DNA of 64,000 bases from a virus. Made by a program: the position numbers and the translations under genes. The notes beneath the pieces are model-generated. The model ran no database searches. It had not been told where the DNA came from and saw only the letters and a program-made list of their open reading frames with translations. The stretch covers positions 64,001-128,000 of the IMG/VR virus record IMGVR_UViG_3300033153_008203; one strand, written 5' to 3'. This document shows positions 19,603-39,693 of the stretch, in pieces (the first letter of the stretch is position 1; each line of letters starts with the position of its first letter).

Positions 19603-20832
19603 TTATACACTCCTAACAGTAATGGGTGACTGGATCGATTGTTCTACTATTACTCTTTCATCAGAGAATGCTATATAGTCACTGATTAGCGTTTGTCTTG
19701 TTCTGTTATCTGCTATTCTAGAGTCCCTATATATAAACAAGCTATCAAAAGGCTTGCCTGTTCTTCCTATGTTTTTAATTTCTTCGCTTATATTAAGTAT
19801 TCTACTGACAAGTTCCTGATTAACAAACTCTTCGCCTATATCTAAATTATTAATATATGAAATTATCTCGTCTTCGACTAGCGCTTCAATGGCAGTTTTC
19901 TGGTCAGCTGTTATTGCAGAACGATAATTTATAGAGACTGACACTTCCATACCTACGTATTTTGGGGCACGTACCACTGCACTATTCCCGAGAGACTTCA
20001 CTCTATCAATAATCTCCTGAACTTTATCAAGTAGTGCACTTGAAACAGTAGGGTAGATAGACTTAACATATACAGAAAAGCTACCTGAACCCCTATCATA
20101 AGGTACAACAGATACGTCTGCAACCCCTGCAACTCCAAGTGCTGCTAGTGTTATCGCTGTTAGATTTGCAGTTTCTGATCCTACTACAGCATTGCTTATT
20201 CTATATCTATAGTTTGTGTCTATCTCTCTATCAGTTCCTCCTGCAATACCACTAACATTTGTTACCTTAAGTGCGTCATTTTGATATCCTGTATACCCTG
20301 TAAAGTTATGAGTATTAATTGCGCCGGCACCAACTGACGCCCTAGATCCTGCGCTCCTACTTATAGCTGACGCATATACCTCAGTTGCTGTTGTGCCAAG
20401 CTCTACATCTTCATAGGTAATGTACTCTATTGTTGTAGTAATTCCTGCTATTGTAGACTCTGCTGCAAGCACTGTTCCCTTAGAGACTATTACCGGTACT
20501 CCACCAGTTATGTCGCCAAACGTTCCAGATATCACATAGAACTTTATGTTACCGTGTGATGCATCTGTATTTGCCTTTTGCGCTTCTTTTCTAACAACCC
20601 CAACCAGTTCACCGATTAAGTCTAGATTGTCTCCAGATGCAGTACGCACAAATGCTTCAGCAATCTCAAGATCGAAACTTTCAGCAAGTCTGCCATGCTC
20701 ATTTGCCATGAGCTCAAGTATTGCTCTAGCTTTTCCACCAGGAGTTGTTTGAGTTATACCTGTAGTGTTGTTTAATATGTCTAATGAATTTTGGAGCGCA
20801 GTGTCTGCGTTATGGTAATTTGATATTGGCAT
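19603..20832 (-). CDS. Baseplate J-like wedge protein
   Basis: TASGDNLDLIGELVGVVRK, VTNVSGIAGGTDREIDTNYRYRI and ALGVAGVADV are canonical Baseplate_J motifs. Confidence 0.88.
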   Translation of the reverse strand: MPISNYHNADTALQNSLDILNNTTGITQTTPGGKARAILELMANEHGRLAESFDLEIAEAFVRTASGDNLDLIGELVGVVRKEAQKANTDASHGNIKFYVISGTFGDITGGVPVIVSKGTVLAAESTIAGITTTIEYITYEDVELGTTATEVYASAISRSAGSRASVGAGAINTHNFTGYTGYQNDALKVTNVSGIAGGTDREIDTNYRYRISNAVVGSETANLTAITLAALGVAGVADVSVVPYDRGSGSFSVYVKSIYPTVSSALLDKVQEIIDRVKSLGNSAVVRAPKYVGMEVSVSINYRSAITADQKTAIEALVEDEIISYINNLDIGEEFVNQELVSRILNISEEIKNIGRTGKPFDSLFIYRDSRIADNRTRQTLISDYIAFSDERVIVEQSIQSPITVRSV

Positions 20833-20840
20833 CTGTTCTC

Positions 20841-21278: not shown

Positions 21279-21287
21279 AATTTCTCC

Positions 21288-21611: not shown

Positions 21612-21612
21612 A

Positions 21613-22035
21613 CTAATCTCCTGGGGGAAAAACTACAAATGATGTTTGTCCTATTTCTGTTGCTCCAGCTGCTGCTCCAGCTGGACGATCATTCTTATCT
21701 TCTGTAATCATGTAGGCCTTACCAAGCCACGGCTTATACCTATATACTATTTCTACTCTATCGCCTTCTTGTGGTTCACCAAATCTTAATGCGATATCTA
21801 ATGGATCATCACCAAGATATATCCATGTGTTCTCGTCTCCTATTAGGCCAGAGTGTCCTGGATCTGCTGACTTCCCTTCGTATCTTACTTGCACAAGTGG
21901 TTGAGTCCAGTTCCCTTTTTTGTCTGTGAATATTTTGCTTATTCTTCCAAAGACTCTCTTTTCTTGAACAAGAAGACCTGTGCTTCCTGATTGCAGCTTT
22001 AATCTTTTTTCATTTCCTAGTTTGCCTTTATTCAT
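21613..22035 (-). CDS. Putative baseplate spike OB-fold protein (gpV/gp5 N-terminal-like)
   Basis: GRISKI...VQVRY...WIYL...PQEGDRVEIVY matches the spike OB-fold pattern (P..GD.V.V). Follows the hub gene. Confidence 0.5.
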   Translation of the reverse strand: MNKGKLGNEKRLKLQSGSTGLLVQEKRVFGRISKIFTDKKGNWTQPLVQVRYEGKSADPGHSGLIGDENTWIYLGDDPLDIALRFGEPQEGDRVEIVYRYKPWLGKAYMITEDKNDRPAGAAAGATEIGQTSFVVFPPGD

Positions 22036-22037
22036 AT

Positions 22038-25000
22038 TTACTCCAATACCTCACTAAAGACTTCTGCTAGCCCTTCTTTTACATCTTCCCATGCATCTTC
22101 GACATCATCGAAAGCCTCACCGAACCTATCGCTATACGCCGACCACAACGTATTGTGTTTGAATCCTTCTATGCCAGCTACAAATGGAACCTTATTAACA
22201 ACAAGAGGCTTAATAATAATTGGCTGGCGCTCTTGAGTTTCTTTGATATAAACTGATCCAATCCCATATAACACAAATGCACCAACTGCGAAGATGCCAC
22301 GCTTGCCTACAGTTTTGTAAGCCACACCCAAGAGCCCCTTAAATCCTCCTCTAAGCTTTAGTGAAGCACCGCCTTTTGCTTTAAAATCAGTGACCTTGTT
22401 TAATAATGTAGACCCTGTTGCCGTAATCTTTGTTTTGGCACCAACTTTAGCTGCACCATATGCGTCCACTGTAGCCGTGCCTAGTCCTACTGACCTAATA
22501 TAGTCTCTTCCCTGCCAATACTTAATTAAACCGGTCTCAGCCAAATCAACTACTTTACCTTTACCGTATAACGAGTATATGTATCCAGTTTTTGCTGCAC
22601 TCTTTATTTTGTCTCCAGCAATTAGTCCTTTTAGAATACCTGTTTCAGTTGCGCCTTTTACTGCCTTTTCCACTACGCCTTTTGGTGTTGTACCTAACAC
22701 TGCTCCTATTACATGGGGTGCAGCCTTTACACCTGCAAACCTTAATTTTGACCAAAGAGCACCAGCTCCTAAGTACTTCAGATAGTTTATCTCTCCCATT
22801 GCTTGTTGCAATGCCATAGTTGCATACTCATTTCCACTAACACAAAGATCTGGAATTATCTCTGTTATAAATCCAGTCTCACTAGAGAAATGATGAACAA
22901 CTTGCTCTACTTCTACAGGACCATACATATCAGCTATGTCGTCAAAAACATGACACACATCATATGGTTTAATCTTTGGATTTCCTAGTACGGTAATGCT
23001 TCCAGTATACACGTCTTTTAGATGTCTTAGAAGTAATCCTTGTGCATATCTAGTAGCCATAAACTCTCCTTCACAGTTTGGCTGCTGAGAGAACAGTAGG
23101 TTTACATTCTCATCTCTAAGATCTTTATCAACTTTAAGAGTTTTCGTATTACCTGTCTTATAGTTAACGTTACCATACTCATCTATCTCTTTTACATCAT
23201 CGACATATTGCACAGTTACTGCATTATAAACGTCTGCATTTACCTTTATATCGTTTGATATGATATTAATCTTATCCGCCAAATAAAAATGCTTTCTGAA
23301 TGGAGTAAATCTGTCTCTAACTATACTTTTTCTTATATTGACAGCACTCTCATCTAGCTCTACTGGAATACCTGATATACCATCTCTCCTTCTGTTTTGA
23401 TTAAGCAGTGTTATTGCTGTACTATGTCCAGGCACTTCTTTCCTAAGCGGAGAATTCTTTTGATACTCTTCTATTGTCTCAGGCCTACTCCAATGTCCCA
23501 TATCTGGTACACCAAAAAACATCGACATCCTGTCGCCATATATTGTAGGCGAAGCAATCCATCCTGGATGTCTAAGCTCCATCTCCTTAAAGATGTCCCA
23601 TATGGTAGTATGAAATATCTTGTAGTCAAGATTAACATATCTTTCTACCATTCCGGTAGCAAATCCATGCATAAAAAGACCTGCAGTTACAACTCCACCT
23701 GTAGCCGCTCCAGCAGTAATTTTAGCAGATGCTACTAGTAGACCGCCATCCCAAAATGCTGTCTTAAATCCTTGTTTAATGCCTTCTGCTATGTTTAGAT
23801 CCCAAGCAGATCCTCCCCAATCAAAGAAATTGCTATCAGTTAAATACAACTCTATACTTGGAGGAAAAATATTATCATCTCTTGGATCTAGATTTGGACC
23901 ATACAACGAGTTTCCTGCTGACGCTATCTCTTCTTTACCTGTAAGAATAATATTAGCAATAGCTGTTTTCTTTCTAGTTCCAAAATGAACAACTTCTGGA
24001 GATTGCATTATCTTAGCAAGCAATCCACCTGTTATTTTCTCAGGTTCTTTTTTTATTTCTTCAGGCTCTTCTACTCCCTTTATCTGACTAACAAGCTCTG
24101 TTGCATAACTCTGACATACAATTGTAACTGCATGTGTTCCTCCAACCTCTACTATCTGTCCATTAAAAACAGTCTCCAATTTTCTCGGGTCATTAGAGTA
24201 TCCTAGTCTTACCTGTATTTTTTGTCCAGGTCTAAGTATTAATGCATCTATTGGATTCTCTGATAAAGACTCTTTGTCTGTTCCTCTTGTCTCATAGAAC
24301 TTGTCATCATCACCAGCATTATATTTTGCAACACTAGTTAGTTTTTGATTCAAGTTAGACATTGTCAATATGCACAAGTCTGCAGGAACTTTTCTGCTCC
24401 TGATTATTTTAATATCATGTACAGCATTATACCCAAAAAAGTCATCAAAGCTTAATCTTGGAATCAAATGAAACTCTTCGTCTTCATCTTCTTCAATAAA
24501 GTATACCTTGTATGTTGGATAAGCCCTGTTCATTGTAAAGATTTCATCGTCATGCGCTTGATCAACTAGTGTGTCAAGCATACCTTTTAGTCCAGTTTGA
24601 CTAAAATCATGAGACTTTACAAACTTTTCATTTATTTTAAAGTAGTCTGTCTTTGTACTGTTGCCGTACTCCTCTGGTCTCTCATGACCATTTGTAGCTG
24701 ATTCTCCAGACCAAACATCTGCTGGTCTCCATTCTTTCTGTACTGTCTCCATTTTCATTGCTATCTCTAATGACTCTTCAGCATACTGCTTAGTATCATT
24801 AAGTAGCTCATTAAAATACTCAGTGTGATTGTCTTCGCTCCAGAAATAATAGTCTGGATCGGTGTCTATAGGCTCATTTGTTATTGTAGTTGGCAAATTC
24901 AAGTCTCTATAACACTCAGTTAAAGACTGTGTTCTGAGCTTGTTTATTTCTTTATCTACACTCTTAAATTGATCTAACTGAAAAATCCCGTTTCCAAACA

Positions 25001-27152
25001 TACTCCAAAATTCATTAGATAATTTCTCATATATCTTTGCAGGTATTGCAATATTAATAGAGTCATCTGGTTCATAGTCCATAGCAGCTACACCTGCGCC
25101 TGCTGCACCTGGTTTTCTTTTTGCAACTATTTTTGGTTTCTTAGAGCTTATCAGATCTTTTACTTTTTTATCAAGGCCATAGATGCTACCCATATTATCA
25201 ACATAACCGCTATGCACATCTTCGTTAGCAATGTAGTCGTTTAATATGTCTACTACATTGTTTATGTGCGACTCAAGAACAGGACTATAGTCTTTTATGT
25301 GTGGACCGTACTTACTCTTTACACCTTGTGTTCTAGTGCCTGGGCTAAAAGTTGCTTGGGCGCCTTCTACTACAATATCTGCCCAGGACTTTTTAGTGCC
25401 TCCATAATCAGCGTAGGCTTCTTGCCCAATAAATTTGCTCATTGTCCCATGCTCAAGATACCTGTCTATCAACGAGAATGCCTTAGTTTTTATCTGCTTA
25501 TTGACCATAACATCTTCTCTAGAGAATCCTTCAGTAAACCACGGATCATACTGTGCAACACTAAAAACAAATATGTCCATATCTGGATTTCCAGGAACTG
25601 TTGATGATTCAGTATTATCTGTTAAACAATGCTCTAAACCAAAAAGTCTCGTAATCGGATTTACTATTGTGAGAACATTGTTATCTCTTATTCTTTTAAA
25701 TTCGTTCTCATTATTATGTGCTGTGTTAAGCGCCAACTTTATATTGTCTATTTGGTCGTTTCTTAATCCTTCTAATGCAAATATTGCTTTAGTATGTTTG
25801 CCACCCATATACTGAGTAGTAGGGTATTCATGTCCGACTATAGGGATAGAAGTAATATTGTGCGTCAATGACACATTAACACTGGTAACTGCAAGCCTAT
25901 CATTGCCTTGAACTATCGTCTGTGATGCCTGTATCTTCCATATGTTTCGTGCATTTGTAGGTAAGTAACCAGTGGACCTTTTCTGTTTAAGAAAATCAGT
26001 ATACACTCTCATGTAGTCTTCATTGTCAAGCGCATTTTTCTTGTCGCTTATTAGTGATCCAATAGAATGGTTTTCCCTGATTATCTCTTCTACGTTCTTT
26101 TTACCAAGCTCTCCTGTGTAGCTAAAGTGCCATGGTCTATCTTTGTTTGGAGTAAAACTATTATCTTGTGCTATTGCAACAAATGACTTATATCTTTTGT
26201 CATTATAGTACTTACTCTTAAGTTCTGTTATCCCAGTAGCGCTGCCAATAGAGTGTAATATCAAATCAAATGCTAATCCAGCCATATGCTCATTCATAAT
26301 AGCTTTATCTTCTGTCTCATCTGTATAAAAATCTATTCCGCCGGCAGGAATAAACATATTTGAAACAGGCATCCCTACTCCATACTTCCTTTTATAAAGC
26401 CTAGCAAGATGCTTAAAGGTACCAGTGGCATTTCTATGCATCTTTGAGCTAGGACCAATAATTCTAGTGTCGCTAGTATTAGAAGAGAACAATGTCTTTC
26501 CTATCTCTGCTACTTCACTTTCTGATAAGTGTCCAGCTGTTGGTGGCGTATCTCTCATGTAAGTATTATACGCTAGAGTTAAATCATTGTTTGCAGCAGT
26601 AATAGTTGGGATAGCATTTAGCACTCTTTGGAATCCCTTTTGATACAAGTTAGATTGAGTTGGGTCTATAACCTTTTGATACTTGTTTTTCTCATCAATT
26701 CTTGGTCCAGTAAGCTCATTTTTAAAAGAGAAGTCAGGAGAATAAGGAAGATAATTAAACAATGTCATATCAAAATTCGCGAACAACGATTCAGGTAGAT
26801 CAGGCACCGTATAAACACTAAGGTTACTAAGTGTTACAGCAAGATTAGATGACTCTGTTACTTCTGATAATGCTGCATTGGATATATATCTACTGCTAAT
26901 ATGAGCAAATGGCGACACCTTAAAGTGCGCTATCAAATGTCTTAGTTTATTGTTGATCTCATTTGTATTTGGAAACGCCATTTCTGCAGACACTACAAAT
27001 ATAGATCTGCCTGAACGAGCCCCTGTCGGAGTACTCTGTCTAAGGACATGATTGTACGCATTCATATTTCTCTTATGAAGCTGTATTCTAGTTGTATTTG
27101 CAGTCAGATCAAGACCGTTTAATACGAAATCATATGTTGGATTATCAGCCAT
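22038..27152 (-). CDS. Large baseplate hub protein (gp27/gp44-like) with an M15 peptidase-like domain
   Basis: 1704 aa. Hub motifs LRPGQKIQVRLGYSND...VFNGQIVEV and YTGSITVLGNPKIKPYD...VEVEQVVHHFS.ETGFITEI. Internal HxxGxAxD...PWH motif (NEHMAGLAFD...DRPWHF). Confidence 0.75.
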   Translation of the reverse strand: MADNPTYDFVLNGLDLTANTTRIQLHKRNMNAYNHVLRQSTPTGARSGRSIFVVSAEMAFPNTNEINNKLRHLIAHFKVSPFAHISSRYISNAALSEVTESSNLAVTLSNLSVYTVPDLPESLFANFDMTLFNYLPYSPDFSFKNELTGPRIDEKNKYQKVIDPTQSNLYQKGFQRVLNAIPTITAANNDLTLAYNTYMRDTPPTAGHLSESEVAEIGKTLFSSNTSDTRIIGPSSKMHRNATGTFKHLARLYKRKYGVGMPVSNMFIPAGGIDFYTDETEDKAIMNEHMAGLAFDLILHSIGSATGITELKSKYYNDKRYKSFVAIAQDNSFTPNKDRPWHFSYTGELGKKNVEEIIRENHSIGSLISDKKNALDNEDYMRVYTDFLKQKRSTGYLPTNARNIWKIQASQTIVQGNDRLAVTSVNVSLTHNITSIPIVGHEYPTTQYMGGKHTKAIFALEGLRNDQIDNIKLALNTAHNNENEFKRIRDNNVLTIVNPITRLFGLEHCLTDNTESSTVPGNPDMDIFVFSVAQYDPWFTEGFSREDVMVNKQIKTKAFSLIDRYLEHGTMSKFIGQEAYADYGGTKKSWADIVVEGAQATFSPGTRTQGVKSKYGPHIKDYSPVLESHINNVVDILNDYIANEDVHSGYVDNMGSIYGLDKKVKDLISSKKPKIVAKRKPGAAGAGVAAMDYEPDDSINIAIPAKIYEKLSNEFWSMFGNGIFQLDQFKSVDKEINKLRTQSLTECYRDLNLPTTITNEPIDTDPDYYFWSEDNHTEYFNELLNDTKQYAEESLEIAMKMETVQKEWRPADVWSGESATNGHERPEEYGNSTKTDYFKINEKFVKSHDFSQTGLKGMLDTLVDQAHDDEIFTMNRAYPTYKVYFIEEDEDEEFHLIPRLSFDDFFGYNAVHDIKIIRSRKVPADLCILTMSNLNQKLTSVAKYNAGDDDKFYETRGTDKESLSENPIDALILRPGQKIQVRLGYSNDPRKLETVFNGQIVEVGGTHAVTIVCQSYATELVSQIKGVEEPEEIKKEPEKITGGLLAKIMQSPEVVHFGTRKKTAIANIILTGKEEIASAGNSLYGPNLDPRDDNIFPPSIELYLTDSNFFDWGGSAWDLNIAEGIKQGFKTAFWDGGLLVASAKITAGAATGGVVTAGLFMHGFATGMVERYVNLDYKIFHTTIWDIFKEMELRHPGWIASPTIYGDRMSMFFGVPDMGHWSRPETIEEYQKNSPLRKEVPGHSTAITLLNQNRRRDGISGIPVELDESAVNIRKSIVRDRFTPFRKHFYLADKINIISNDIKVNADVYNAVTVQYVDDVKEIDEYGNVNYKTGNTKTLKVDKDLRDENVNLLFSQQPNCEGEFMATRYAQGLLLRHLKDVYTGSITVLGNPKIKPYDVCHVFDDIADMYGPVEVEQVVHHFSSETGFITEIIPDLCVSGNEYATMALQQAMGEINYLKYLGAGALWSKLRFAGVKAAPHVIGAVLGTTPKGVVEKAVKGATETGILKGLIAGDKIKSAAKTGYIYSLYGKGKVVDLAETGLIKYWQGRDYIRSVGLGTATVDAYGAAKVGAKTKITATGSTLLNKVTDFKAKGGASLKLRGGFKGLLGVAYKTVGKRGIFAVGAFVLYGIGSVYIKETQERQPIIIKPLVVNKVPFVAGIEGFKHNTLWSAYSDRFGEAFDDVEDAWEDVKEGLAEVFSEVLE

Positions 27153-27154
27153 TC

Positions 27155-30100
27155 TTAGCCCTCTATTAGTCTATCTATCATTTCAGCGGTTATTGTCCTT
27201 GAATTGTCATTTATATTAACGTTAACATTAGAAGGCATTTTCATTCTTTCCATTATTTTTTGGCTTATCTCATTATAGTCTACATTTGCAGATTCCCTAC
27301 CCCTAATTCTTACAACGCTTGACATAGGAGTTGTGTTTTGATCTACCATTGCCTTTGGCGTATGCTGCATAGCTTGTGGTGAACCTACTTGTCCAGCCTT
27401 TAATTGGCCTCCCTGTATACTCTCTGGATGTATATACTTAGGCTTAGCCTGAAAATTTAAGTCAGGTATAACCATCTCTCCTGCTGATCCTCGTGGAGGT
27501 CTTGATGGTGGTGCCATAATATTATGTCCGCCAAAAGGAGTCTCTTCTCTAGATTTTGCACCAAGATAAAAAAGTCCTCCCGCCAAAGCAGTTGCTGCTG
27601 CAACCATTGCTGTTCCTTTACCCATACCAGCAAATTGACCTTTCATCATAGTCTTCACATTAGCAGTAAGAGTTTCTACAGCAGAATATCCAGTTGCTCC
27701 TGATTTCATTGACAAAATAGGATCAGGCATCATAGCACCATGCATTGATCCGCCTGCTGCGTCTGCAGTTCTCAAGACTCGCATCGGATCACTTGCAAGC
27801 CTTAGTGCTGCTGCAGTAGTTGGTCCTTTGCGACCAATGTGCATAAATGCCTTTAGGTCTTCAGCTTTTACTGCTGAACCTTTCCTTGCCTTTAAAGATC
27901 TAGTAACTATTTCCTCGACATCTATTCCTTGTTCAGCAAGCTTACTCAAATCAAATCTTTTGCCTACCGCTTCAGATATTTGGCCTGCACCTTCTATTAT
28001 GCCTTCAGGACTCCTGGCACCACGAATAGCTTTCATTATTCTTTGCGACTCTCCAATCATTGCTTTAGCTTCTGCTGGAGTCATGTGCTTTGCAGATATG
28101 ATTTCCTGAGGAACATTTTCATACAATTGCTGTGCACCTGCTATTATTTTTTTATCTCCAGATGCAGCAGCGCTTTCAAGTATGTCTTCAAATGCAACAT
28201 CTAATGCTCCTATTTCAGATGTAACTGCCATCTTTAACTGTTCTCCTAGCTGACTGAATTCAACTGCTGCGGCACCAGATACAGCTCCTCGTTTTGCTCT
28301 ACTGAATATCGCTGCTGATTTTGCAAAGTCATCAAAGGTAGCAGTAAGCGTTTTGTGCTTTAGCATTTTTCTAGCAGTTTCTTGTTCCCTTTTATTCATG
28401 ACTGTTGTGACTATTACATTATCTCCATCATAGTCTCCTCTCAGCACTTTCATGACAGACTCGCTAGCTTCAAGCTGATGACCAAGTTCGTCAAGCTTAG
28501 AATCGTATCTTAGTCTAATTGGAAACGCACCTGTCTTACCTGTTATTGGATGTCTAGCTACTAAACCTTCAACAGCTTCTCCTCTTAAAAAGGCTTCACG
28601 CTGAGACTTTACAAATGCCTTATCGGTTGAGTCTGCCCACATCTTTTCCATAATATTGCGGCTTGCTTTAACCTCTGCTTCTCTTTCAATCCATCTTCCT
28701 GCTTCAGCAGAAGGAAATGGCCCTATGAATCCTGTAGCCTGACTCTGAACTCTCGTGTAAACAAAACCAGGAGTCTTGGCTTTACCTGCCGTAGCTCTAG
28801 CATATTGCGTAGAAAGCTCAATATCAAGATTCTTCATTGCAGCAGTAACGTCTTTCGCTGATTCCTTAGTCATTACAGCAGAAAGAAGTTCTGAGTATCT
28901 TTTAAGTGTTGATAGAGCCTCTCTTTTGCCAGCTTCACCAGGACGCGTTCCCATTCCAGTTACTTCAGTTATTGACGGCAAATACATATGCTTCTTAAGA
29001 CCGTATGTCTTTTGTTGCTCTTCTGTAAACTTTAGCAGCGTGCCTTCTTGACTCCATATTGTCTTGTCACTGGTTCGCCTAAGCATTGATCTATCAAGCT
29101 CCTGTGCACCAGCAAACTGTTGCTCTGTTAGCAGCTTAGAAAGGTTAGCGTCTCCAGCTACAGACAGCATTGCTTTTCTTAGTTCTGTTACAGCTCCGTA
29201 TGACTTGCCCAGTCTTCTTTGGCCTACAATCTCTGCGACTCCTTCTCCTGTAGGTCCTCCTAAACCGGCCTTCCATATTGCTCTTGTCTCAAATGATCCT
29301 TTTACCATCTCATGAGCACCAAGCTCTCCACCTGGAACAACCTGAGCTATACCAAATGCAAATGGGTTCCTTTTAATATATTCTAGTTCTTTTTCACTGA
29401 AATCTATAGCTCCAGACAGTATTGCACTGGATTCTTCTTTTATCTCTTTAGCATATGTGCCAAATACCATTCCAAACTCAACACCAGTTAAGCCATGCTT
29501 TCTTGACAATGCTAATAGCTTACGCTCAACACCATATGCTTGGCCTTGTACGTCAGAAAGATACTGTAATGGATCATCAGTAAACGCATTATTAACACCA
29601 GCTTGACTAAGGATATGTCTTAGCCCTGTTGTCATTTGATATTTTCTGGCTCTAGGATCTTTAAATAGTGCCTCATAATGCGTAAAAGCTTCTGGCTTAA
29701 TTCCTGTTCCTGAAACTTTTTGTGCATACTTAGCTAACATACTTGACTCTTGAGGCCTCAATACACTTTTTACTCCACCTTCTCCAAATACTTTTTGGGC
29801 TACGCCTCCTCTTACTTGTCTTTCTATCTCTACTGTTACGTAATCGGTGCCTGATGCCTTTTTTACACTCTTTATTATGTCTGTAATATCGTCACCAACG
29901 GTTTGAGATATTAGCTCATCTAAGTCTGATGTCTTTCCACCATATACAACCTCTCCTGCTGCAGTTGTTGTCTTTAGCAGCTCACGTCCCATACCTAGTC
30001 GTGCTCCTGCTGCCAACCTAACAGGTTTCCCTGTTGCTTGTGCTTCGACTATTTCTGGTGCCAAAGGAAGAATTCCAGAGCTCTCTAATATACGATACTT

Positions 30101-31597
30101 ACGTGTTGACTGAGTATTAAGCATTTCTGTAATCGTATCTGAAACTGCTATCTCTCCTTCTCTAACGCCAAGGTCCATCATGTCAGGCATATACAGCATT
30201 GGCATATTAAGGTCTCTTATATTGGCCATCTGTATTGCAGCTTCAGCTGTTACTGTCTTTCTTATTCCTCTTGCCTTCTCAAACATTCTTACACTCTGTA
30301 CTGCATCACTAGTAAGAGTTGTTTCAGGCCTTATAATATGAAGAGGTTTTCGCGCCCAACGTGTCTCTTCTCCAAAAGGAACAAGCTTAGTCAAATCTAC
30401 ACCACGCTGAAACGGATAGAACTGTCTACCACCTTCGGTTCTTATTATCTCTCCTTTTGGGCTATAGAATATGCCCGGTCTTGCTACTTGTTTCTCTATC
30501 CATGCTGGCAAATCTTCTGGAGCCATATCTTTTGGCAACTCTATATTGACTCTACTTGAACGCATTGTTTCCCAAACTCCAGAGACTCCAGTTTCAGGAC
30601 CAGCAGGCATAGCTTGAGGAAAAAAGTCCCCATACAGTTTTCTCATGTCTTTTAGATTGTCTTTTCCTTCCGCCTTAAAATGATGTAATCCAGCATCCCA
30701 CTTAGCAAGCAACCCATTCTTATTGACAAGGTCTTCTATAATGAACTCTCCAAAGTTTAATAATCTTCCCTTGGCTCCTTGACGCTCAAGAGTATCTACC
30801 TCTCCAAATATGTTAGATGCGAGAGAACTTACGGGCACACTAGAGGTCAATGGTATCTGCATTGTACGTCTTGCCCTATCAGCTCCAGTTGCCTTGCTTA
30901 TTCCGAACTGCATGACTGGTGCACCTGCGATCTCTTTAATACTAAAACCAGTGCTTACATCAAACTTATCAGGAAAGTTTTTACCTACAAGCTCTGAAAC
31001 TCTAGCATGTAGCTTAGTTGCATGTCCTTTGTGTGTGCTTCTATTAGTAATATCTAATACTTCTTCAGGTGCAAAGCTATATTCGGTTGTTAGTCTCTTA
31101 ACGTCTAAGTCGTCAACCATTGCAACTTGAGACCTTACATTCTTCATCAAAGATGTCCTTCCCATTCTTTGGGAAAGATTCTCAAGCTTCTGAACAAGTT
31201 CTCCAGAACCAACTGATGGAAGCCCATCAACCTCTAGCAACCCTTCGTTTCTCATTAGGTCTTGTACATCTGCAACACCTAAATGCCTAAAGGTCTGCAT
31301 TAAAGCATTACGAGTAGCATGCTCTAACTTGAAGCGCATATTCCTATCCCCTTTATTCTGAATCCTAATCAAGTCCTGAAGAATCTGCTGATTTACAGTC
31401 GTAGCTTTTACAAATGGCTCTTTGCTTCTAGGGTTAATCATGTTCTGAAGTCCCAGTCTGCCTTGACGAGACTTAAGCCTATATGGGTCTAAAGAATCTT
31501 CTACTGTCTTAAAGTTATACACGCCCTTAACATCACGAAGATGTTGCTTGAGACTTCTATTCTGTTTTTTTATCTTATTGTCTGACATTAAATCCAA
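27155..31597 (-). CDS. Putative single-chain two-barrel (double-psi beta-barrel) RNA polymerase, probably virion-packaged
   Basis: 1480 aa; likely true start MSDNK at 31588 via a TAATG overlap. Beta-like barrel: REGEIAVSD and VTVEIERQVRGGVAQKVFGEGGVKSVL (K602-x7-K610, compare GDKMAGRHGNKGV). Beta'-like barrel: LVARHP (R1015) and RGDYDGD (D1055/1057/1059, compare NADFDGD). Downstream QEIISAKH resembles a trigger loop. Hydrophobic C-terminal segment. Confidence 0.75.
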   Translation of the reverse strand: MDLMSDNKIKKQNRSLKQHLRDVKGVYNFKTVEDSLDPYRLKSRQGRLGLQNMINPRSKEPFVKATTVNQQILQDLIRIQNKGDRNMRFKLEHATRNALMQTFRHLGVADVQDLMRNEGLLEVDGLPSVGSGELVQKLENLSQRMGRTSLMKNVRSQVAMVDDLDVKRLTTEYSFAPEEVLDITNRSTHKGHATKLHARVSELVGKNFPDKFDVSTGFSIKEIAGAPVMQFGISKATGADRARRTMQIPLTSSVPVSSLASNIFGEVDTLERQGAKGRLLNFGEFIIEDLVNKNGLLAKWDAGLHHFKAEGKDNLKDMRKLYGDFFPQAMPAGPETGVSGVWETMRSSRVNIELPKDMAPEDLPAWIEKQVARPGIFYSPKGEIIRTEGGRQFYPFQRGVDLTKLVPFGEETRWARKPLHIIRPETTLTSDAVQSVRMFEKARGIRKTVTAEAAIQMANIRDLNMPMLYMPDMMDLGVREGEIAVSDTITEMLNTQSTRKYRILESSGILPLAPEIVEAQATGKPVRLAAGARLGMGRELLKTTTAAGEVVYGGKTSDLDELISQTVGDDITDIIKSVKKASGTDYVTVEIERQVRGGVAQKVFGEGGVKSVLRPQESSMLAKYAQKVSGTGIKPEAFTHYEALFKDPRARKYQMTTGLRHILSQAGVNNAFTDDPLQYLSDVQGQAYGVERKLLALSRKHGLTGVEFGMVFGTYAKEIKEESSAILSGAIDFSEKELEYIKRNPFAFGIAQVVPGGELGAHEMVKGSFETRAIWKAGLGGPTGEGVAEIVGQRRLGKSYGAVTELRKAMLSVAGDANLSKLLTEQQFAGAQELDRSMLRRTSDKTIWSQEGTLLKFTEEQQKTYGLKKHMYLPSITEVTGMGTRPGEAGKREALSTLKRYSELLSAVMTKESAKDVTAAMKNLDIELSTQYARATAGKAKTPGFVYTRVQSQATGFIGPFPSAEAGRWIEREAEVKASRNIMEKMWADSTDKAFVKSQREAFLRGEAVEGLVARHPITGKTGAFPIRLRYDSKLDELGHQLEASESVMKVLRGDYDGDNVIVTTVMNKREQETARKMLKHKTLTATFDDFAKSAAIFSRAKRGAVSGAAAVEFSQLGEQLKMAVTSEIGALDVAFEDILESAAASGDKKIIAGAQQLYENVPQEIISAKHMTPAEAKAMIGESQRIMKAIRGARSPEGIIEGAGQISEAVGKRFDLSKLAEQGIDVEEIVTRSLKARKGSAVKAEDLKAFMHIGRKGPTTAAALRLASDPMRVLRTADAAGGSMHGAMMPDPILSMKSGATGYSAVETLTANVKTMMKGQFAGMGKGTAMVAAATALAGGLFYLGAKSREETPFGGHNIMAPPSRPPRGSAGEMVIPDLNFQAKPKYIHPESIQGGQLKAGQVGSPQAMQHTPKAMVDQNTTPMSSVVRIRGRESANVDYNEISQKIMERMKMPSNVNVNINDNSRTITAEMIDRLIEG

Positions 31598-34500
31598 CCT
31601 TCCTTAACAGCGTTCTCGAATCCAACCTGCAATGAATCCCTTGTTATATCAAGATCTATTATGTTTTGCGGGTCCTTCTTTAGAAACTTATCTACAGTAA
31701 TATTAACGTCTTCGACCCCGTAACTAGCTAAGATATCATGTAAAGCTGCTCTCATATCACCTGCTGACATATCACCTTCCATATGTGTGACCTGCTCGAT
31801 TGCATCTTCATCTATGTATGGTTTGTATGGAAGAGTCTTTTCTCTTGACTCCCAAAGATTAAAGTCATGCACATCTTTTCCTTCATTCTTTACCACAACA
31901 AACTTAATATCCTCTAAGTCTGTCTGTGGATGAAACCCTACGAAATCATTCCTAGGCAATGGATGACTTTTAAAGTAGTCTTCCAGCAATCTCTCACGTT
32001 GAAAATCTGCATAGCTCATTGCTATATCTTCTGAGACATCATCTTCATAGTTTTTATAGGCAGCCATAGCAGACGGATCAACTGCTTGACCTTCAGATAT
32101 TCTTCGCCTATGAAGCTCCTCAAGCATCTCATGTTGTTCAGTAGAGAGACTTCCTTTTATTTTTCTCTCAGCAAACAGCTGATTCATCATGTCAAGATTC
32201 CACCTAGCTTGAACCAAATGACGCTCATGCTTCGGCAACATGTCCATTATGAGCTCTCTCTCTGATTCTGTAGATGCACGTGCAAATGCATCGAAATAAG
32301 GCTTGTCTCTCTTTTGCATCGCAAGCAATCCGTTAAGAGGATTTCCATATGGATCAGCTCCAAATGCTGTCCTACGTCTTATCTTTTCGTACTCTTCAGC
32401 AGTCTCTGTATCACCTTGTGTAAGCGCCAGATTCTTAAGTCTTGTAAACTTAACATACTTTAGTTTGTCAAAGTATTCTTCTATCTCGTTTCTTTCTTTT
32501 ATGTGTTGAGGTAGCTCTCTCACACCTGCATACTTATATCCTGCATAATGAAGCATTGGCCTCAAGAAGTTCTCCCATGGCCTATCCCAAAATGCAGCAG
32601 ATGTTCCGTATGCCTCTGCAGCAGCATACTCTTCTACAGCAGTCCTTGTCTTAGTACCAAGAAACTTATGGAACGGAGAAAAAGGAGTCAGATATTCTGA
32701 CGGATCATCAATAGCACGAATTCCAGTTTCCCAATATGCTCCAACTAGTTGCTCGAATGGATTATACGCAATCTGACCTGTTAGTTGTCCTGCAGACGCT
32801 TTATCATATTCAGCAAGCTCTGCTTCAAGCAGCATCCTATTTAGATTAACTCCTTCTCCAGTCCTGACTACAGCTCTTATTTCTGGCTTATCTGATTTTG
32901 TTTTAGAGTACTGCCTTAATATATCTCCAGACATCTCTATCTCTACCTGAGTTCCAGCAGCTACACCAAGACCTGCAAGCTCTCGTGATGCTCTCATTCT
33001 CCTTTGATTAGCCCTGATTCCTGCTTCTTGTTGTGTAAGCTCGTTGTTTTCTTTTATGGCCATTCTAGAGAATGCTGATTGGCTTGTCTTTAGTCCTGCC
33101 ATGGCTATTGTGACACCAGGCATTTCTTCTATCTCAAACTTGCCAGGCTCTATCATCTTGGAAATAGTGACAGTTCTTGTCTCAGTTTCACGATCTATAA
33201 ACTGCTTCTGTTCTCTGAATTCTTTAAATATTTTTTTCTGTTGCAACTGATCCTGAATCGTCTGATAAAGCTGCTCATCTCTTTCATTAAGAGTTCCTTG
33301 TTTACGCAGGCCTTGAACCATTTGCTTATAGAATTTAGTCTGAGGAGAATAAGGAGACACATCAGAAAGAATCTTATATCTCCACATTAGTGAATAGTTT
33401 TTTGGATCTATTCCCTCAAGCTCAGGATAAAGAGCTTCCATTCCTCTTCCCGGTAAGCGTAACTCTCCCTCTAGTATTTTGCCAAATGCAAAACCATGTT
33501 GAAAGTCAGGAGAAGGCTGGCCAGGTCCAGGCAACCATCCTGGCATTGTATTTTTTATTGGATTAAATAAATCTATGCCTCTACGTCTATGCGGATATAA
33601 ACGTCTGAACAGCTCTGTTGAGAGCGCTCCACCACCAATTTGGAGGTCCCAGTAGGCTCTCTCTATTCCAGTGGCTCTACTGGCAGATTCTAGCCTCTCA
33701 TACTGATCATAGAACTCCTCAGTACCGGTTAACATGCCTTTTGCTACAGTTAAACTATAGCCAGGTAGACCGAACATTTCTGTGAGCCTATAAGCCTGTT
33801 CACCAAATGCTTGTGTAGGACTGTATGGGTCTACAGGTATTCCTCTAGGAATCTCTCCAAGATCATATGCTGGTGTCTCACCAAATGGTCTAGGCAACCT
33901 TTTAACTTCCATCTGCCCAGGTCCATATCCATATCCTTCTAGCTCTCCTTTCATCTGTCCAATAGGAATAGACATCTGTCCTGGATCAGCTATACCTGGA
34001 CCAAATCCTGCTGGTCCAAACGATGGTCCAACTTGTCTCATCCATTCTTCGGTATGCATCAGCTTGGAAGGCTTAATTACCTGTCCAATTGTTGCTGCAA
34101 GCATTGGCCCAATGAAAGGAACATCTTCAAATGCTGGAGCTGTTACTGGAAACGGGAACTCATAATAATGTTCTTTCTCCCACTTGTATGGATCCATTAA
34201 GTATCCAATAGGATTATATATTGGATCAGATAAGATCTTCTGTCCTTCACTTCCATATAGGGCTTTAACTTTTCCCCGCGATAAATAAGACGGAATGAAG
34301 TGCTTACGGAAATACTGTATGCGCCCGCCTTCATAAGGAGAATTGTGAACAAGAAATTCTCCTGCCACAAACAAATGATCTTCATCGTCTATCTCAAAAT
34401 CATAAACTATATCATCATAATTATATGTCTCAACCTTTCTAATAACCGAAAACAGTCTTCCATCATAGATTTGCATAGATCTATTAGAACAGTTATTCTT

Positions 34501-36957
34501 AGTATAAAATCTTAATCTCCATTTTCCTTTAAAGTCATTCTCTTCTTTTGGGCCTATCCCACATAGCATACCTAAGTTAAGAGCCATTAGCCGCACATCT
34601 TCAAGCAAGTGTTTTCTAGAAGAGCTTATAATCATAGCAAACTTATCAAGATGCCCATCTCCTCTCCAATATCCTTCAATCAAGTCTTTCTTAAATGCAT
34701 CTGGAGCATCTAAGAATATTCTTGGAATACACTTGTCATTAAGCTTATGATCATTATCATAGAATAATCCATAAAAAAGCTTTGCTAAAATACTACTGCA
34801 TATTCTGACTATCCATGCACCTTCTATAGCTTTAGTAAAATTAGTCCTATGTTTAAAGGCAGGAGTTATATTAAAATATTTTTCACAAATCTCTACTATA
34901 TCATCAACTATCCATTTCTCTGACACAGCATGTACAGTTTCTATAAACTGTGGAACTTTACCATCTCTAAAAGAAAGATTTCCTTCTGCTAAAAAATACC
35001 CAAATAGTCTTCCTATATCAGCATTTAAGACTATATCACTAGAGATAGAATGTTTTCCACTCCTTTGGTAGTTTTTTGTATGCCAATTCTTTTGAGCAGA
35101 GTAAATTTTACCGTATTGCTCTATAATAGGAAAATCTATAAAATCAGCAGCACTTATAGTCTCAACACTGTTTTTAAGTTTTCTAAAAGGAGTCTCTACA
35201 AAGTCTCCATATTTAATATTCCTAGCTTCTTCCTCTATCAATTCTCCTTTTCTAATGATTGGCACAATATGATTCCCTGTCAGGTCGGTAGTATTGTCTC
35301 TATCGAATGCAGAAGAAAAGCTATACATAGTTTCATTTGCATCTCTAGTATAGATGTCTATGACTTTGACTTTTCTATATCCTCTTCCAACTAAGATATC
35401 CCCTACTTTGATATCTTCTGCACTAATGCTATGGTCCATGAAAAGCTTGCAAGTAGTTGATTTCATTAAACATCTTCCGGCCTCCCACCAGCGACCTTTT
35501 CTTATTGCAACTTCTTTTTCACCAGAGTATATCGCTGCAAGCTCTTCCGATGTCTCAGTACCTGCTATTGCTCCAGGAAAGAACGGTGCTGCAAATGCTA
35601 ATCCAAGAAGTCCACCTGTTCTCCTCAATGCACTAGAAAGATTTCTTTGTTTAAATCCTAGCTTCTTACCTATTCCAAAGAACGTATTATAGTTCTTTTC
35701 CTTAAACTTATTGGCAGCTATCAACGCAGCTTCAGCAGCGCCAACTCCTGGCCTCATTGCTTCACGTGCAGTATAGGCAAGTCTGGCTCCATATGCACCG
35801 AAGCCAAGCATTGCTCCTTTAAGTGGGAATGCAGATAAACCTAGTAAGCTTGTAGATCCTGGTGCTATCTCTTCCTGACGAGTTGCATACTCTTGCATGC
35901 CAGTGGCTTCCATAAGCTTGGCTTTCATGATCTTTGCTTGAGCATAACCACCAAGCACTGTTCCGCTTATCATGTTACCAGTTGCATAGTCAGCTAATTG
36001 AAATCCTTTCCATAGTGCTACAGCCGGCAACACTCTTCTTGTAAGGTAACGTCCTATAGTCTGATGTGCTACACCAGGCTTTATCTCTGGAAACACCTTG
36101 TTAAACGCTTTTGCTGCTAAAGAGCCTTGTACTTTTGGCCCAACTTTTGATTTTATTTTGTCAGCCAGATCACGCATTACTGGCAGCTCTGCTATCTCTG
36201 TAGGTGAAACTCTGAGAATCCTGTTGGTCATCTCAGTTGCACTTGTAAAGCCAAACCTAGCATAAGCGTGTGCTATATTTCTTCCACCTATAGGCAAGAA
36301 CTCTTTAGTTGAGAACTTGAGATCGTCTGCACCTATTGCTCTGACATAGTTTTTAAAAAATTCCGCCTGACCAAGTTCCCTATATGTTCTGAGCTTACTA
36401 GCTCTACCAAGTACTGTAGCGCCTAGTCCTTGTTTTTTAGAAACGTCTGCACCAATCCTAAGCTTACCTTCACTGAGGACAAGACCTCTTGACAAGATGT
36501 CGTCTTTATGCTTAGTAAATACATCTTTACCTAGAAGCTTTCCAAGATACTTCTGTCTACTTGGGTCGTCCCAGAATTGGCCTCTCCATGTTGTTTGACC
36601 AGATGCAACTCTTTCTAGTGGACTAAGTGCTTCACTTACTCTAAACGTAGATAGGATTTGTGCAGGTGATGCCCGTTCAACGAATTTGGCTGCACCTATA
36701 TATTTGTCCCATACCCTATCTTTCAGTGAGTATGCGACTCCTTTTTGTCCTGGTAATGGTATCGCTCCTGCTGCAAATACTGCTGCACCAACCATGCCTG
36801 CAGCTGCAAGTATAGATCTCTGTTCTCCTTCTGAGACAACAGGACGCTGAGGACCAGCTGCCCACATTGTGGGTTCAGTTGCAGGTGTACGATAATCTGT
36901 TTGAGTAACAGAAGTATTTTGATTTATTGGGAATCCAGGTATATCAGGTCTTGACAT
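31588..36957 (-). CDS. Tape-measure-like / ejection protein, intein-containing (about 1412 aa after splicing)
   Basis: 1789 aa in the tape-measure position, directly after the tail chaperones. Several Gly/Ala hydrophobic segments in the N-terminal third, intein at aa 496-872, SNase-like segment near the C-terminus. Confidence 0.65.
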   Translation of the reverse strand: MSRPDIPGFPINQNTSVTQTDYRTPATEPTMWAAGPQRPVVSEGEQRSILAAAGMVGAAVFAAGAIPLPGQKGVAYSLKDRVWDKYIGAAKFVERASPAQILSTFRVSEALSPLERVASGQTTWRGQFWDDPSRQKYLGKLLGKDVFTKHKDDILSRGLVLSEGKLRIGADVSKKQGLGATVLGRASKLRTYRELGQAEFFKNYVRAIGADDLKFSTKEFLPIGGRNIAHAYARFGFTSATEMTNRILRVSPTEIAELPVMRDLADKIKSKVGPKVQGSLAAKAFNKVFPEIKPGVAHQTIGRYLTRRVLPAVALWKGFQLADYATGNMISGTVLGGYAQAKIMKAKLMEATGMQEYATRQEEIAPGSTSLLGLSAFPLKGAMLGFGAYGARLAYTAREAMRPGVGAAEAALIAANKFKEKNYNTFFGIGKKLGFKQRNLSSALRRTGGLLGLAFAAPFFPGAIAGTETSEELAAIYSGEKEVAIRKGRWWEAGRCLMKSTTCKLFMDHSISAEDIKVGDILVGRGYRKVKVIDIYTRDANETMYSFSSAFDRDNTTDLTGNHIVPIIRKGELIEEEARNIKYGDFVETPFRKLKNSVETISAADFIDFPIIEQYGKIYSAQKNWHTKNYQRSGKHSISSDIVLNADIGRLFGYFLAEGNLSFRDGKVPQFIETVHAVSEKWIVDDIVEICEKYFNITPAFKHRTNFTKAIEGAWIVRICSSILAKLFYGLFYDNDHKLNDKCIPRIFLDAPDAFKKDLIEGYWRGDGHLDKFAMIISSSRKHLLEDVRLMALNLGMLCGIGPKEENDFKGKWRLRFYTKNNCSNRSMQIYDGRLFSVIRKVETYNYDDIVYDFEIDDEDHLFVAGEFLVHNSPYEGGRIQYFRKHFIPSYLSRGKVKALYGSEGQKILSDPIYNPIGYLMDPYKWEKEHYYEFPFPVTAPAFEDVPFIGPMLAATIGQVIKPSKLMHTEEWMRQVGPSFGPAGFGPGIADPGQMSIPIGQMKGELEGYGYGPGQMEVKRLPRPFGETPAYDLGEIPRGIPVDPYSPTQAFGEQAYRLTEMFGLPGYSLTVAKGMLTGTEEFYDQYERLESASRATGIERAYWDLQIGGGALSTELFRRLYPHRRRGIDLFNPIKNTMPGWLPGPGQPSPDFQHGFAFGKILEGELRLPGRGMEALYPELEGIDPKNYSLMWRYKILSDVSPYSPQTKFYKQMVQGLRKQGTLNERDEQLYQTIQDQLQQKKIFKEFREQKQFIDRETETRTVTISKMIEPGKFEIEEMPGVTIAMAGLKTSQSAFSRMAIKENNELTQQEAGIRANQRRMRASRELAGLGVAAGTQVEIEMSGDILRQYSKTKSDKPEIRAVVRTGEGVNLNRMLLEAELAEYDKASAGQLTGQIAYNPFEQLVGAYWETGIRAIDDPSEYLTPFSPFHKFLGTKTRTAVEEYAAAEAYGTSAAFWDRPWENFLRPMLHYAGYKYAGVRELPQHIKERNEIEEYFDKLKYVKFTRLKNLALTQGDTETAEEYEKIRRRTAFGADPYGNPLNGLLAMQKRDKPYFDAFARASTESERELIMDMLPKHERHLVQARWNLDMMNQLFAERKIKGSLSTEQHEMLEELHRRRISEGQAVDPSAMAAYKNYEDDVSEDIAMSYADFQRERLLEDYFKSHPLPRNDFVGFHPQTDLEDIKFVVVKNEGKDVHDFNLWESREKTLPYKPYIDEDAIEQVTHMEGDMSAGDMRAALHDILASYGVEDVNITVDKFLKKDPQNIIDLDITRDSLQVGFENAVKEGWI
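34342..35472 (-). mobile_element. Intein with LAGLIDADG homing endonuclease (377 aa) in the tape-measure-like gene
   Basis: N-terminal Cys (GR|CLMKSTT), block B (LTGNHIVP), LAGLIDADG motifs LFGYFLAEG and LIEGYWRGDG, block F (VYDFEI), C-terminal HN|S. DNA is visibly more AT-rich than the flanks. Confidence 0.93.
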
Positions 36958-36964
36958 AATTCAC

Positions 36965-37010
36965 AAAAAAATAAGGGGAGAAAACAACTACTTAGTCATG
37001 TTTCTCCCCA
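36965..37010 (-). terminator. Intrinsic terminator between the tail chaperones and the tape-measure-like gene
   Basis: Minus strand GGGGAGAAACA-loop-TGTTTTCTCCCC followed by TTATTTTTTT. Confidence 0.75.
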
Positions 37011-37017: not shown

Positions 37018-37632
37018 TTACTGAGCTCTTCTTCTATTCATGTTCCAGTCTCCTGGAGGAGGTCCTAAATCGCTTTTTGCAAGCTCTTTATTTGCTCTAC
37101 CAAAGTCTATTGGTCCAGCTTTTATTTTCTTTGTAGATTTACCACTTATTTGTAATGGCTCACCAAGTATGCCTTGAGAAATCAAGATGCTCTCTGCTAA
37201 TGCAAGCTTCTCAGAGACATCATCCCAGCTCATACTGTCTATATCGTCTGGCGTATATCCAGGAAATGCTTGACATATTAGAGCTGTTATTTGATTTGTT
37301 ATTGATCCAACAAGCTCTCTTTTTTCCTCTAGCTTTTCATCTATACTCTCAATGCTTTGTGGACCAGACTCATGTAGTATGAGACCAGCTACTGTAAGAA
37401 TATCTCCTGCATAAAACAAGTCTATTGCTCCTGTATATATGTCATCTAATACACAGTCTTTAAAGATCTTTTCTTCTATATGATAAGAAGGAATCCCGCC
37501 AGATTGGAGCGTACTGGTATACGATAAATATTCATTCCACGTAAGCAGTCGATATACTATCTCATGGCCAGCAGGAGAACTGTATTTGAATATGCGTTTA
37601 TATTTGCATTTTGCATCTAAATACTGGTTCAT
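37018..37632 (-). CDS. Tail assembly chaperone (second paralog)
   Basis: YRLLTWNEY...IFKDCVL parallels WRPITWQDY...LLYKCVL in the upstream gene. C-terminal 'YTPDDIDSMSW' is typical of GT-type chaperone extensions. Directly precedes the tape measure. Confidence 0.6.
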   Translation of the reverse strand: MNQYLDAKCKYKRIFKYSSPAGHEIVYRLLTWNEYLSYTSTLQSGGIPSYHIEEKIFKDCVLDDIYTGAIDLFYAGDILTVAGLILHESGPQSIESIDEKLEEKRELVGSITNQITALICQAFPGYTPDDIDSMSWDDVSEKLALAESILISQGILGEPLQISGKSTKKIKAGPIDFGRANKELAKSDLGPPPGDWNMNRRRAQ

Positions 37633-37638: not shown

Positions 37639-38088
37639 TTACAGGTCTATAACCAGATTCATTGCTACCTGTGGCGGGATAAAGTTTGATCCCTCCATTA
37701 TCTGTTGTGACAGAGTAGGAATTGTTCCGCCTTTTAATGTTGGTATATTTTCAGGCATAATCTTAGGCCAAAGAACACACTTATATAATAGTTGCTCATC
37801 AAAGAAGTTTGGATTTTGCGGATTCTCTGCTGCAGACTGTTGCAACATCTTATAGTCTTGCCAAGTAATTGGCCTCCATAAGAATGCTTCTTTCTCGGAA
37901 AACATAGACATTTTTACTTCATATGTAGTTTTCCAATGAGTCACTTGTTCTTGTGTTGGAGCGTTTGGGATGCTTGCAAGAATTGCATATGGATCAGGCG
38001 CCCCATCTTCCTCTAGTTCTGCTTCTAGTGCTGGTGCTTCTGTTTCTGGTGTTACTTCTTGTTCTGTCTCTTTGTTAGTATTTGGCAT
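37639..38088 (-). CDS. Tail assembly chaperone
   Basis: 149 aa between the tube genes and the tape measure. 'WRPITWQDY...CVLWP...GGTIPTLSQQIMEGSNF' pattern; strong AGGAGG SD. Confidence 0.65.
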   Translation of the reverse strand: MPNTNKETEQEVTPETEAPALEAELEEDGAPDPYAILASIPNAPTQEQVTHWKTTYEVKMSMFSEKEAFLWRPITWQDYKMLQQSAAENPQNPNFFDEQLLYKCVLWPKIMPENIPTLKGGTIPTLSQQIMEGSNFIPPQVAMNLVIDL

Positions 38089-39622: not shown

Positions 39623-39626
39623 CTAC

Positions 39627-39663: not shown

Positions 39664-39693
39664 TTATAATTTAGATTAATTGATACGATTATA

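Follow-up and report, generated by a model that had tools for sequence, protein, structure and literature searches.

How might a contractile-tailed phage bring its own transcription enzyme into the cell? The DNA considered here is a 64,000-nucleotide stretch (the window) that corresponds to bases 64001-128000 of a single 145,069-bp virus contig, IMG/VR record IMGVR_UViG_3300033153_008203, which is rated linear and 75% complete. Our subject is a run of three consecutive giant genes on its minus strand, called genes 1, 2 and 3 in their order along that strand. We propose, with fair confidence, that these genes belong to the tail-lumen and hub module of a contractile-tailed phage resembling 0305phi8-36, and that the gene in the tape-measure slot, gene 2, encodes a complete single-chain two-barrel RNA polymerase that is carried in the virion. 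The enzyme is probably injected through the tail. The features on which this proposal turns are the following, in window coordinates.

31588..36957, minus strand: gene 1 (P0001), 1789 amino acids (aa), 1412 aa after splicing
27155..31588, minus strand: gene 2 (P0002), 1477 aa from the ATG at 31588 or 1480 aa from a TTG at 31597
27701..31033, minus strand: predicted polymerase core of gene 2, a beta-like module (P0002 residues ~189-767) followed by a beta-prime-like module (~817-1299)
28421..28435, minus strand: putative catalytic DYDGD (DxDxD) motif of gene 2, P0002 residues 1055-1059, from the family alignment
27557..27613, minus strand: Gly/Ala-rich hydrophobic helix of gene 2, P0002 residues 1329-1347, a hydropathy peak
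27158..27328, minus strand: C-terminal ~55-aa domain of gene 2, homologous to the C-termini of tape-measure-slot proteins in cultured relatives
22038..27152, minus strand: gene 3 (P0003), 1704 aa

Gene 2 is predicted to be a single-chain two-barrel RNA polymerase

The gene 2 sequence matched nothing in Pfam, PHROGs, the cultured-phage collection or the IMG/VR patterns, and searches of PDB sequences with the single protein and with a profile likewise returned no match. Against 1.8 billion representatives, a profile search recovered 19 relatives, most of them ~1450-1600 aa in length. The predicted fold is informative. A template-free AlphaFold2 (AF2) model of P0002 residues 140-1320, with a predicted local distance difference test (pLDDT) score of 75.6 and a predicted template modelling (pTM) score of 0.72, gave at least 100 Foldseek matches in the PDB at E <= 0.001, and all of those listed are RNA polymerase large subunits. 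In VIA-align comparisons, model residues 50-628 match beta-type chains and residues 678-1160 match beta-prime-type chains, with Z scores of 11-12.8. The N-terminal, beta-like half aligns with the AR9 non-virion polymerase (7s00_C, Z 12.6), with PhiKZ 7ogp_C (Z 12.1) and with bacterial beta (6j9e_C, Z 11.4), and the C-terminal half aligns with 7ob9_A, a beta-prime/Rpb1-type chain (Z 12.8). Single-chain enzymes align across both halves: P74 gp62 (8f5m_A, Z 12.1), QDE-1 (7y7p_A, Z 11.3), maize RDR2 (Z 10.4) and Thermus phage P23-45 gp96 (8h2n_A, Z 9.2, root-mean-square deviation (rmsd) 4.2, 344 residues aligned).

The DYDGD motif sits in a double-psi beta-barrel (DPBB) that matches designed and natural DPBB domains at Z ~10. 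Its three Asp residues and an upstream R-H-P element are invariant in 23 of 23 family members, and DxDxD is also found in the middle giants of six further syntenic homologues (L001-L003 and L009-L011). Two lysines, K610 and K646, are nearly invariant in the sequence alignment and may be the two conserved basic residues expected in the beta-like DPBB. Because both halves match the polymerase fold and the DxDxD motif is present, we conclude from the model that gene 2 encodes a two-barrel RNA polymerase in a single chain, which has kept its metal-binding motif intact and is predicted to synthesize RNA. In the contig, rated 75% complete, it accounts for the only polymerase-profile match and the only credible DxDxD protein.

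The polymerase chain carries a tape-measure-type C-terminus

Beyond the polymerase core lies the Gly/Ala-rich hydrophobic helix, followed by a Pro/Gln-rich linker and then the terminal domain of ~55 aa, which is conserved across the gene 2 family. Most family members, as well as gp036 of Acinetobacter phage vB_AbaM_ME3 and gp095 of phage WH1, have a comparable helix at a distance of ~110-130 residues from the C-terminus. A profile of the family's C-terminus (hmmsearch) matches 0305phi8-36 gp146 (5.8e-11), WH1 gp095 (2.3e-8) and CDS31 of the Moorella phage MTATph1 (2.5e-8), and hhalign gives 97% probability for this homology (E 1e-10). In 0305phi8-36, gp146 was assigned as the tape measure on tail-length grounds, and only its last ~60 residues were found to be conserved (Hardies 2007, PMC2147016). 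Thus, the predicted polymerase core, a hydrophobic helix and a gp146-type C-terminus occur in one polypeptide, encoded one gene after a tail chaperone pair. A long ruler segment that could set tail length was not found in gene 2; just ~150 residues, made up of the helix, the linker and the ~55-aa domain, follow the core. A complex prediction for the gene 2 C-terminal domain with the gene 3 hub region scored 0.00, the partner being poorly folded, and this counts neither towards nor against an interaction.

Gene order places the giants between the tail tube and the baseplate

The surrounding genes provide the context for the giants. Reading along the minus strand, the module runs tail sheath, three tube-like paralogues, a two-gene chaperone pair, a terminator, giants 1-3, three small genes and a baseplate J gene; the major capsid protein is also encoded upstream of the giants.

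37639..38088, minus strand: first gene of the tail chaperone pair, 149 aa, arranged as in 0305phi8-36 gp143/gp144
37018..37632, minus strand: second gene of the tail chaperone pair, 204 aa, arranged as in 0305phi8-36 gp143/gp144
36965..37009, minus strand: intrinsic-terminator-like GC-rich hairpin with U-run, between the 204-aa gene and gene 1
19603..20832, minus strand: Baseplate J-like wedge gene, end of the conserved block (Pfam Baseplate_J 1.3e-21; PHROG baseplate wedge 9.8e-30)

In 0305phi8-36, gp143/gp144 have been described as a "two-gene tail chaperonin" (Hardies 2007, PMC2147016), and in metagenomic relatives of the present phage the position of the second chaperone gene is filled by a protein of 204-321 aa. 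Since sheath, tube and chaperone genes lie upstream and Baseplate_J lies downstream, the giants fill the tape-measure-to-hub interval of a myovirus. The hairpin has a folding free energy (dG) of -20.5 kcal/mol and a z score of -3.4 against shuffles, and probably reduces expression of the giant genes, whose products are low in copy number, below that of the sheath and tube genes. Genes 1 and 2 overlap in the sequence TAATG, and 2 nt separate genes 2 and 3. The most likely start of gene 2 is the ATG at 31588, because of the TAATG junction and because a database protein 100% identical to gene 2 (P0004) is equally long, at 1477 aa.

A preliminary description of this DNA, made from the sequence alone, had reported three giant open reading frames lying head to tail downstream of a terminator, each with Gly/Ala-rich hydrophobic segments, and had read them as a possible cassette that is injected and transcribes. 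The arrangement is as described, and hydropathy finds Gly/Ala-rich hydrophobic segments in the products of all three genes. The placement of an RNA polymerase, gene 2, in the tape-measure/hub locus of a myovirus is likewise upheld, by the AF2 fold with its Foldseek and VIA-align matches, by the gene context and by the gp146-type C-terminus. What did not stand is the claim that genes 1 and 2 end in similar beta-rich tails: profile-profile comparison (hhalign) gives a probability of 0.1% (E 0.49), and because this similarity fails the original observation is confirmed in part only.

The three tube-like paralogues (249, 241 and 212 aa) lie consecutively after the sheath gene at window positions 38148-40332. 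All three match phrog_9206, which is labelled "major head protein"; this family corresponds to the tail tube and tube-paralogue genes of 0305phi8-36.

The three-gene block is conserved in metagenomic and cultured phages

Co-occurrence of the triad in related genomes had been put forward as a check on the cassette idea, and the order is kept in every relative examined, seven metagenomic and four cultured. The seven metagenomic relatives (L001, L002, L003, L009, L010, L011 and a Logan contig) retain the order chaperones, giant 1, polymerase-like giant 2, hub, three small genes and J, at identities to the gene 2 polymerase from 56% down to ~17%. Where the DNA of the middle giant was read, six of six carry DxDxD and match the polymerase profile.

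The three-giant layout is also found in the cultured phages 0305phi8-36, ME3, Moorella MTATph1 and WH1. Among these, only ME3 gp036 matches the polymerase profile, and it does so weakly, at 24 bits (E 0.002 for a database size of 5 million proteins). The match of this 1603-aa protein, annotated as hypothetical, is colinear in three stretches, and the protein carries DHDQD as well as the hydrophobic helix before its C-terminus; we found no report in the literature searched that calls it a polymerase. Beyond the C-terminal domain, no polymerase similarity was found in 0305phi8-36 gp146, WH1 gp095 or Moorella CDS27. WH1 gp095 contains the sequence ADHDGDN, which may be due to chance.

In the Moorella phage (L006, positions 12513-19869) the middle giant appears to have been split by a transposase insertion, so that the conserved C-terminal domain is now encoded by an open reading frame of its own, 313 aa long (CDS0031).

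Gene 1 belongs to the gp145 family and differs from a classical tape measure

Gene 1 follows the tail chaperones and precedes the hub, the position expected of a tape measure. By BLASTP it is colinear with 0305phi8-36 gp145 (6e-20 and 1.6e-16), ME3 gp035, WH1 gp096 and Moorella CDS26, and its family comprises at least 167 homologues at E <= 0.001 in a database clustered at 90% identity, with ~38-50% identity over the core and E-values down to 1e-168. We conclude from these alignments that gene 1 belongs to the conserved virion protein family of gp145; in the 0305phi8-36 record, gp145 and gp146 are annotated as virion proteins by mass spectrometry. Two insertions interrupt the gene.

34342..35472, minus strand: 377-aa LAGLIDADG homing-endonuclease intein, P0001 residues 496-872 (Pfam LAGLIDADG_3 6.8e-8; Intein_splicing)
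32752..33186, minus strand: SNase-like OB-fold insert, P0001 residues ~1258-1402 (VIA-align, Foldseek, ESM Atlas)

The intein begins with Cys, ends with His-Asn and is followed by Ser. Its boundaries are exact, because intein-less homologues join the equivalents of residues 495 and 873 and a relative at 34% identity (L002) encodes an intein-less homologue of exactly 1412 aa, the length that had been given for the spliced protein in the preliminary description. Inteins are unusual in a tail-module structural gene and point to a strongly constrained protein. More broadly, the gp145-like family is an intein hot spot, with Hint/LAGLIDADG insertions at differing sites (P0029, P0038, P0099, P0138 and others), and some members, proteins of 2000-2450 aa, have two or more inteins.

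The second insert is nuclease-like by its fold, which in the model is that of staphylococcal nuclease. It aligns with 1sta_A at Z 9.9 (rmsd 3.7, 119 of 137 residues aligned; VIA-align), Foldseek matches staphylococcal nuclease with probability 1.00 and a template modelling score by target of 0.63-0.67, and ESM Atlas SNase clusters match it as well; Pfam SNase gives no match to gene 1 even at E 10. The insert is absent from a subfamily of ~1280-aa homologues. Apart from it, gene 1 has fold matches only to its own family, and no informative match was found in the PDB (Foldseek, VIA-align), in a PDB-sequence profile search or in the ESM Atlas. The BFVD fold matches include A7KUR9, which is probably 0305phi8-36 gp145, although the tool returned no name. 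A lead towards an LPD38 "polyvalent protein" (ESM Atlas 0.86) was not supported by Pfam scans of 45 family members.

Is gene 1 nevertheless the real tape measure, and at the same time a channel former, with the polymerase mere cargo or an ejection protein stored in the neck or head and encoded alongside? Gene 1 stands directly after the chaperone pair, its gp145 homologue is a virion protein, the polymerase core is predicted to be globular, and three hydrophobic Gly/Ala-rich segments in the N-terminal third of gene 1, the only feature of this protein that points to a channel former, suggest a possible role in membrane insertion. Gene 1 is not, however, the extended, mostly helical and fast-diverging chain that characterizes a ruler. 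It is too conserved (167 homologues, 40-50% core identity), it hosts inteins at several sites, and its C-terminal 917 residues, the C-extein, are predicted to form a compact, globular structure (pLDDT 82.8, pTM 0.77) with a mostly helical body and one beta-rich insert. Because it is highly conserved, an intein host and predicted to be globular, gene 1 is unlike a classical tape measure. Furthermore, the ruler role was given to the middle gene on tail-length grounds (Hardies 2007), and the tape-measure-type C-terminal domain is carried by gene 2 and not by gene 1. We consider this alternative unlikely, and it is the strongest of those weighed here.

Gene 3 encodes an enlarged baseplate hub

Gene 3 is, by its sequence matches, an enlarged gp27-type baseplate hub of the gp147 family. 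It matches a PHROG baseplate hub family (phrog_4930, 3.6e-6) together with phrog_20474 (7.6e-62) and phrog_8809, and tblastn and BLASTP align it with the hub proteins of 0305phi8-36 (gp147; BLASTP 5e-15 and 3.7e-12), ME3, WH1 and the Moorella phage.

24012..24533, minus strand: gp27-like hub domain, P0003 residues ~874-1047 (phrog_4930 over residues 909-1014)
26058..26510, minus strand: putative M15/VanY-like peptidase domain, P0003 residues ~215-365 (Pfam VanY; Atlas)

The hub region aligns to gp147 residues 849-1034, and gp147 contains a T4 gp27 homology domain (Hardies 2007, PMC2147016). For the peptidase the support is moderate: among Atlas clusters the closest are Peptidase_M15_4/VanY (score 0.93, with 171 features in common), whereas Pfam VanY reaches E 0.046 and 14 bits against a cut-off of 25. 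Of the enzyme-like domains named in the preliminary description, the SNase-like domain of gene 1 is borne out by its fold, and the M15 peptidase-like domain of gene 3 is moderately supported. Taken as a whole, the interpretation offered there is partly supported.

The hubs of two distant relatives (L003, positions 14386-20478, and L011, positions 18288-23864) have Peptidase_M23 in place of the M15-like domain, and wall-degrading modules thus appear to have been swapped between relatives. An earlier account (PMC2147016) described a "hyperplastic hub" whose wall-degrading domains are exchangeable, and gene 3 fits it.

Discussion

If a polymerase is expressed from a late structural operon, its main use lies in being packaged for the next round of infection. 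We propose that the three giants would be made late, at low copy and in a fixed ratio, and that the polymerase would be incorporated into the tail by way of its tape-measure-type C-terminus, assisted by the chaperone pair. Upon contraction the hub peptidase would open the wall and giants 1 and 2 would be expelled, their hydrophobic helices may engage the inner membrane, and the polymerase would then act on the incoming DNA and transcribe its first genes, as has been suggested for P23-45 gp96.

Several observations weigh against this proposal. The presence of gene 2 in the virion is read from the genes, and the same holds for the relatives whose middle giant is a clear polymerase. Compact, globular structures are predicted for the polymerase core and for the gene 1 C-extein alike, which leaves their fit in, or passage through, the tail tube unexplained, and the locus contains no obvious candidate for an extended ruler. 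Since gp146 lacks both DxDxD and polymerase similarity, homology to the protein in the tape-measure slot is limited to the last ~55 residues of gene 2. Gene 1 has no assigned molecular function. A search for repeated promoters found no phage-specific promoter motif in the genome, and sigma-70-like promoters are present. Finally, no second polymerase was found, which counts against the proposal only within the limit set by a contig rated 75% complete.

It is also conceivable, though in our judgement quite improbable, that gene 2 has its place in the late operon by chance and specifies a non-virion enzyme, be it a middle or late transcriptase, a replication primase-like enzyme or an RNA-dependent polymerase. 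The two-barrel enzymes include RNA-dependent and DNA-synthesizing members, of which QDE-1 and RDR2 match gene 2 at Z 10-11; 0305phi8-36 has a non-structural gene of the RdRP family, orf99; and it is from the genes alone that gene 2 is placed in the virion. Against this, relatives as distant as 17% identity keep gene 2 between the gp145-like gene and the hub gene, translational coupling ties gene 2 to its neighbors, and a conserved hydrophobic helix and a tape-measure-type C-terminal domain would have no role in a soluble cytoplasmic enzyme. Least probable is that gene 2 is an inactivated relic with a purely structural role as ruler or plug: it does sit in the tape-measure slot, where the cultured Bacillus relatives have a non-polymerase protein, but the DxDxD and R-x-P elements are invariant across members only 16-34% identical, the whole core of ~1100 residues is conserved and confidently folded, and the length is near-constant (~1450-1500 aa in most members), as expected of an enzyme.

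Returning to a virion-borne polymerase, one extension of it deserves mention as a speculation that we regard as doubtful. The clade might lack a conventional tape measure, with the polymerase, perhaps together with the gp145-like protein, held unfolded in the tube by the chaperones as the length ruler. Expelled on contraction, the chain would refold at the inner membrane, anchored there by its helix, and then act as a transcriptase that both reads the genome and helps to draw it in.

The closest precedent is Thermus phage P23-45 gp96, a virion RNA polymerase fused to a tape measure (Chaban et al. 2024, PMC10770324; PDB 8H2M, 8H2N). Like gp96, gene 2 is predicted to be a single-chain two-barrel polymerase with DxDGD at the tape-measure locus, and in both proteins the polymerase precedes a hydrophobic segment and then a tape-measure-type C-terminus. 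Delivery of gp96 through the tail, and pre-early transcription coupled to DNA entry, have been proposed (PMC10770324), and by analogy the same may apply to gene 2. The differences are substantial. P23-45 is a siphovirus whose 5002-aa protein includes ~3800 residues of ruler and a metallopeptidase, whereas the phage described here is a myovirus whose protein has 1477 aa and ~150 residues past the polymerase; there is no sequence similarity between the two proteins, and gp96 is not the best structural match. With respect to P23-45, moreover, no paralogous non-virion polymerase was found in the present contig, rated 75% complete.

The closest relative in gene order is 0305phi8-36 with gp145-gp146-gp147 (Thomas 2007; Hardies 2007, PMC2147016), in which the three-giant arrangement was already described in 2007 and the order is the same: sheath, tube paralogues, chaperone, giants, V-like and J-like genes. 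Gene 1 is homologous to gp145, gene 3 to gp147, and the C-terminal ~55 aa of gene 2 to gp146. Unlike gene 2, gp146 has 2537 aa, no DxDxD and no detectable polymerase similarity. The RdRP-family polymerase of that phage is a separate gene outside the structural module, the non-structural orf99, which Pfam RdRP (PF05183) matches; the same profile finds nothing in this genome or in ME3. The genome of 0305phi8-36 has 219 kb, compared with at least 145 kb here. The triad gp035-gp036-gp037 of ME3 has the same gene order.

The virion polymerases of crAss-like phage phi14:2 (gp66), N4 and the phiKZ-like phages are likewise late products that are packaged and, once ejected, transcribe early genes. The phi14:2 gp66 and phiKZ/AR9 enzymes are two-barrel enzymes like gene 2, whereas the N4 enzyme is T7-like. 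Unlike gene 2, these enzymes reside in the head or inner body or have their genes outside a tape-measure slot, and they lack the gp146-type C-terminal domain. No homology of the triad to T7 or crAss ejection proteins was found.

What is new here is a polymerase in the tape-measure slot of myoviruses: we found none reported within this triad in the literature searched, while the link between tape measure and polymerase has been known since 2024 in one siphovirus group. That link has so far rested on one small group of Thermus siphoviruses. The same logic would now extend to contractile-tailed phages, with a polymerase family unrelated by sequence, and the conserved three-gene block reaches the cultured phages 0305phi8-36, ME3 and WH1. 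Functions can also be proposed for two of the largest "hypothetical" genes in these genomes. Our reading raises the questions of how an enzyme of ~160 kDa would pass through a tube of ~4 nm, how the tail is measured when the ruler slot encodes an enzyme, and whether a first round of transcription independent of the host would evade defenses that act on entering DNA.

Finally, we note some features of the genome outside the window. Two long intergenic regions (genome positions 24151-24243 and 35181-35275) contain four copies of CTTGACAAAA, with four copies of CTATAATAT nearby, and these repeats look like strong sigma-70-type promoters. Because of them, the host polymerase probably drives part of the transcription program. 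Small genes are numerous from the high-coordinate end of the window onward, at genome positions 127.7-145 kb, where most of the long intergenic spacers (200-500 bp) are also found. This is a candidate early/accessory region, in which targets of an injected polymerase would be sought first.

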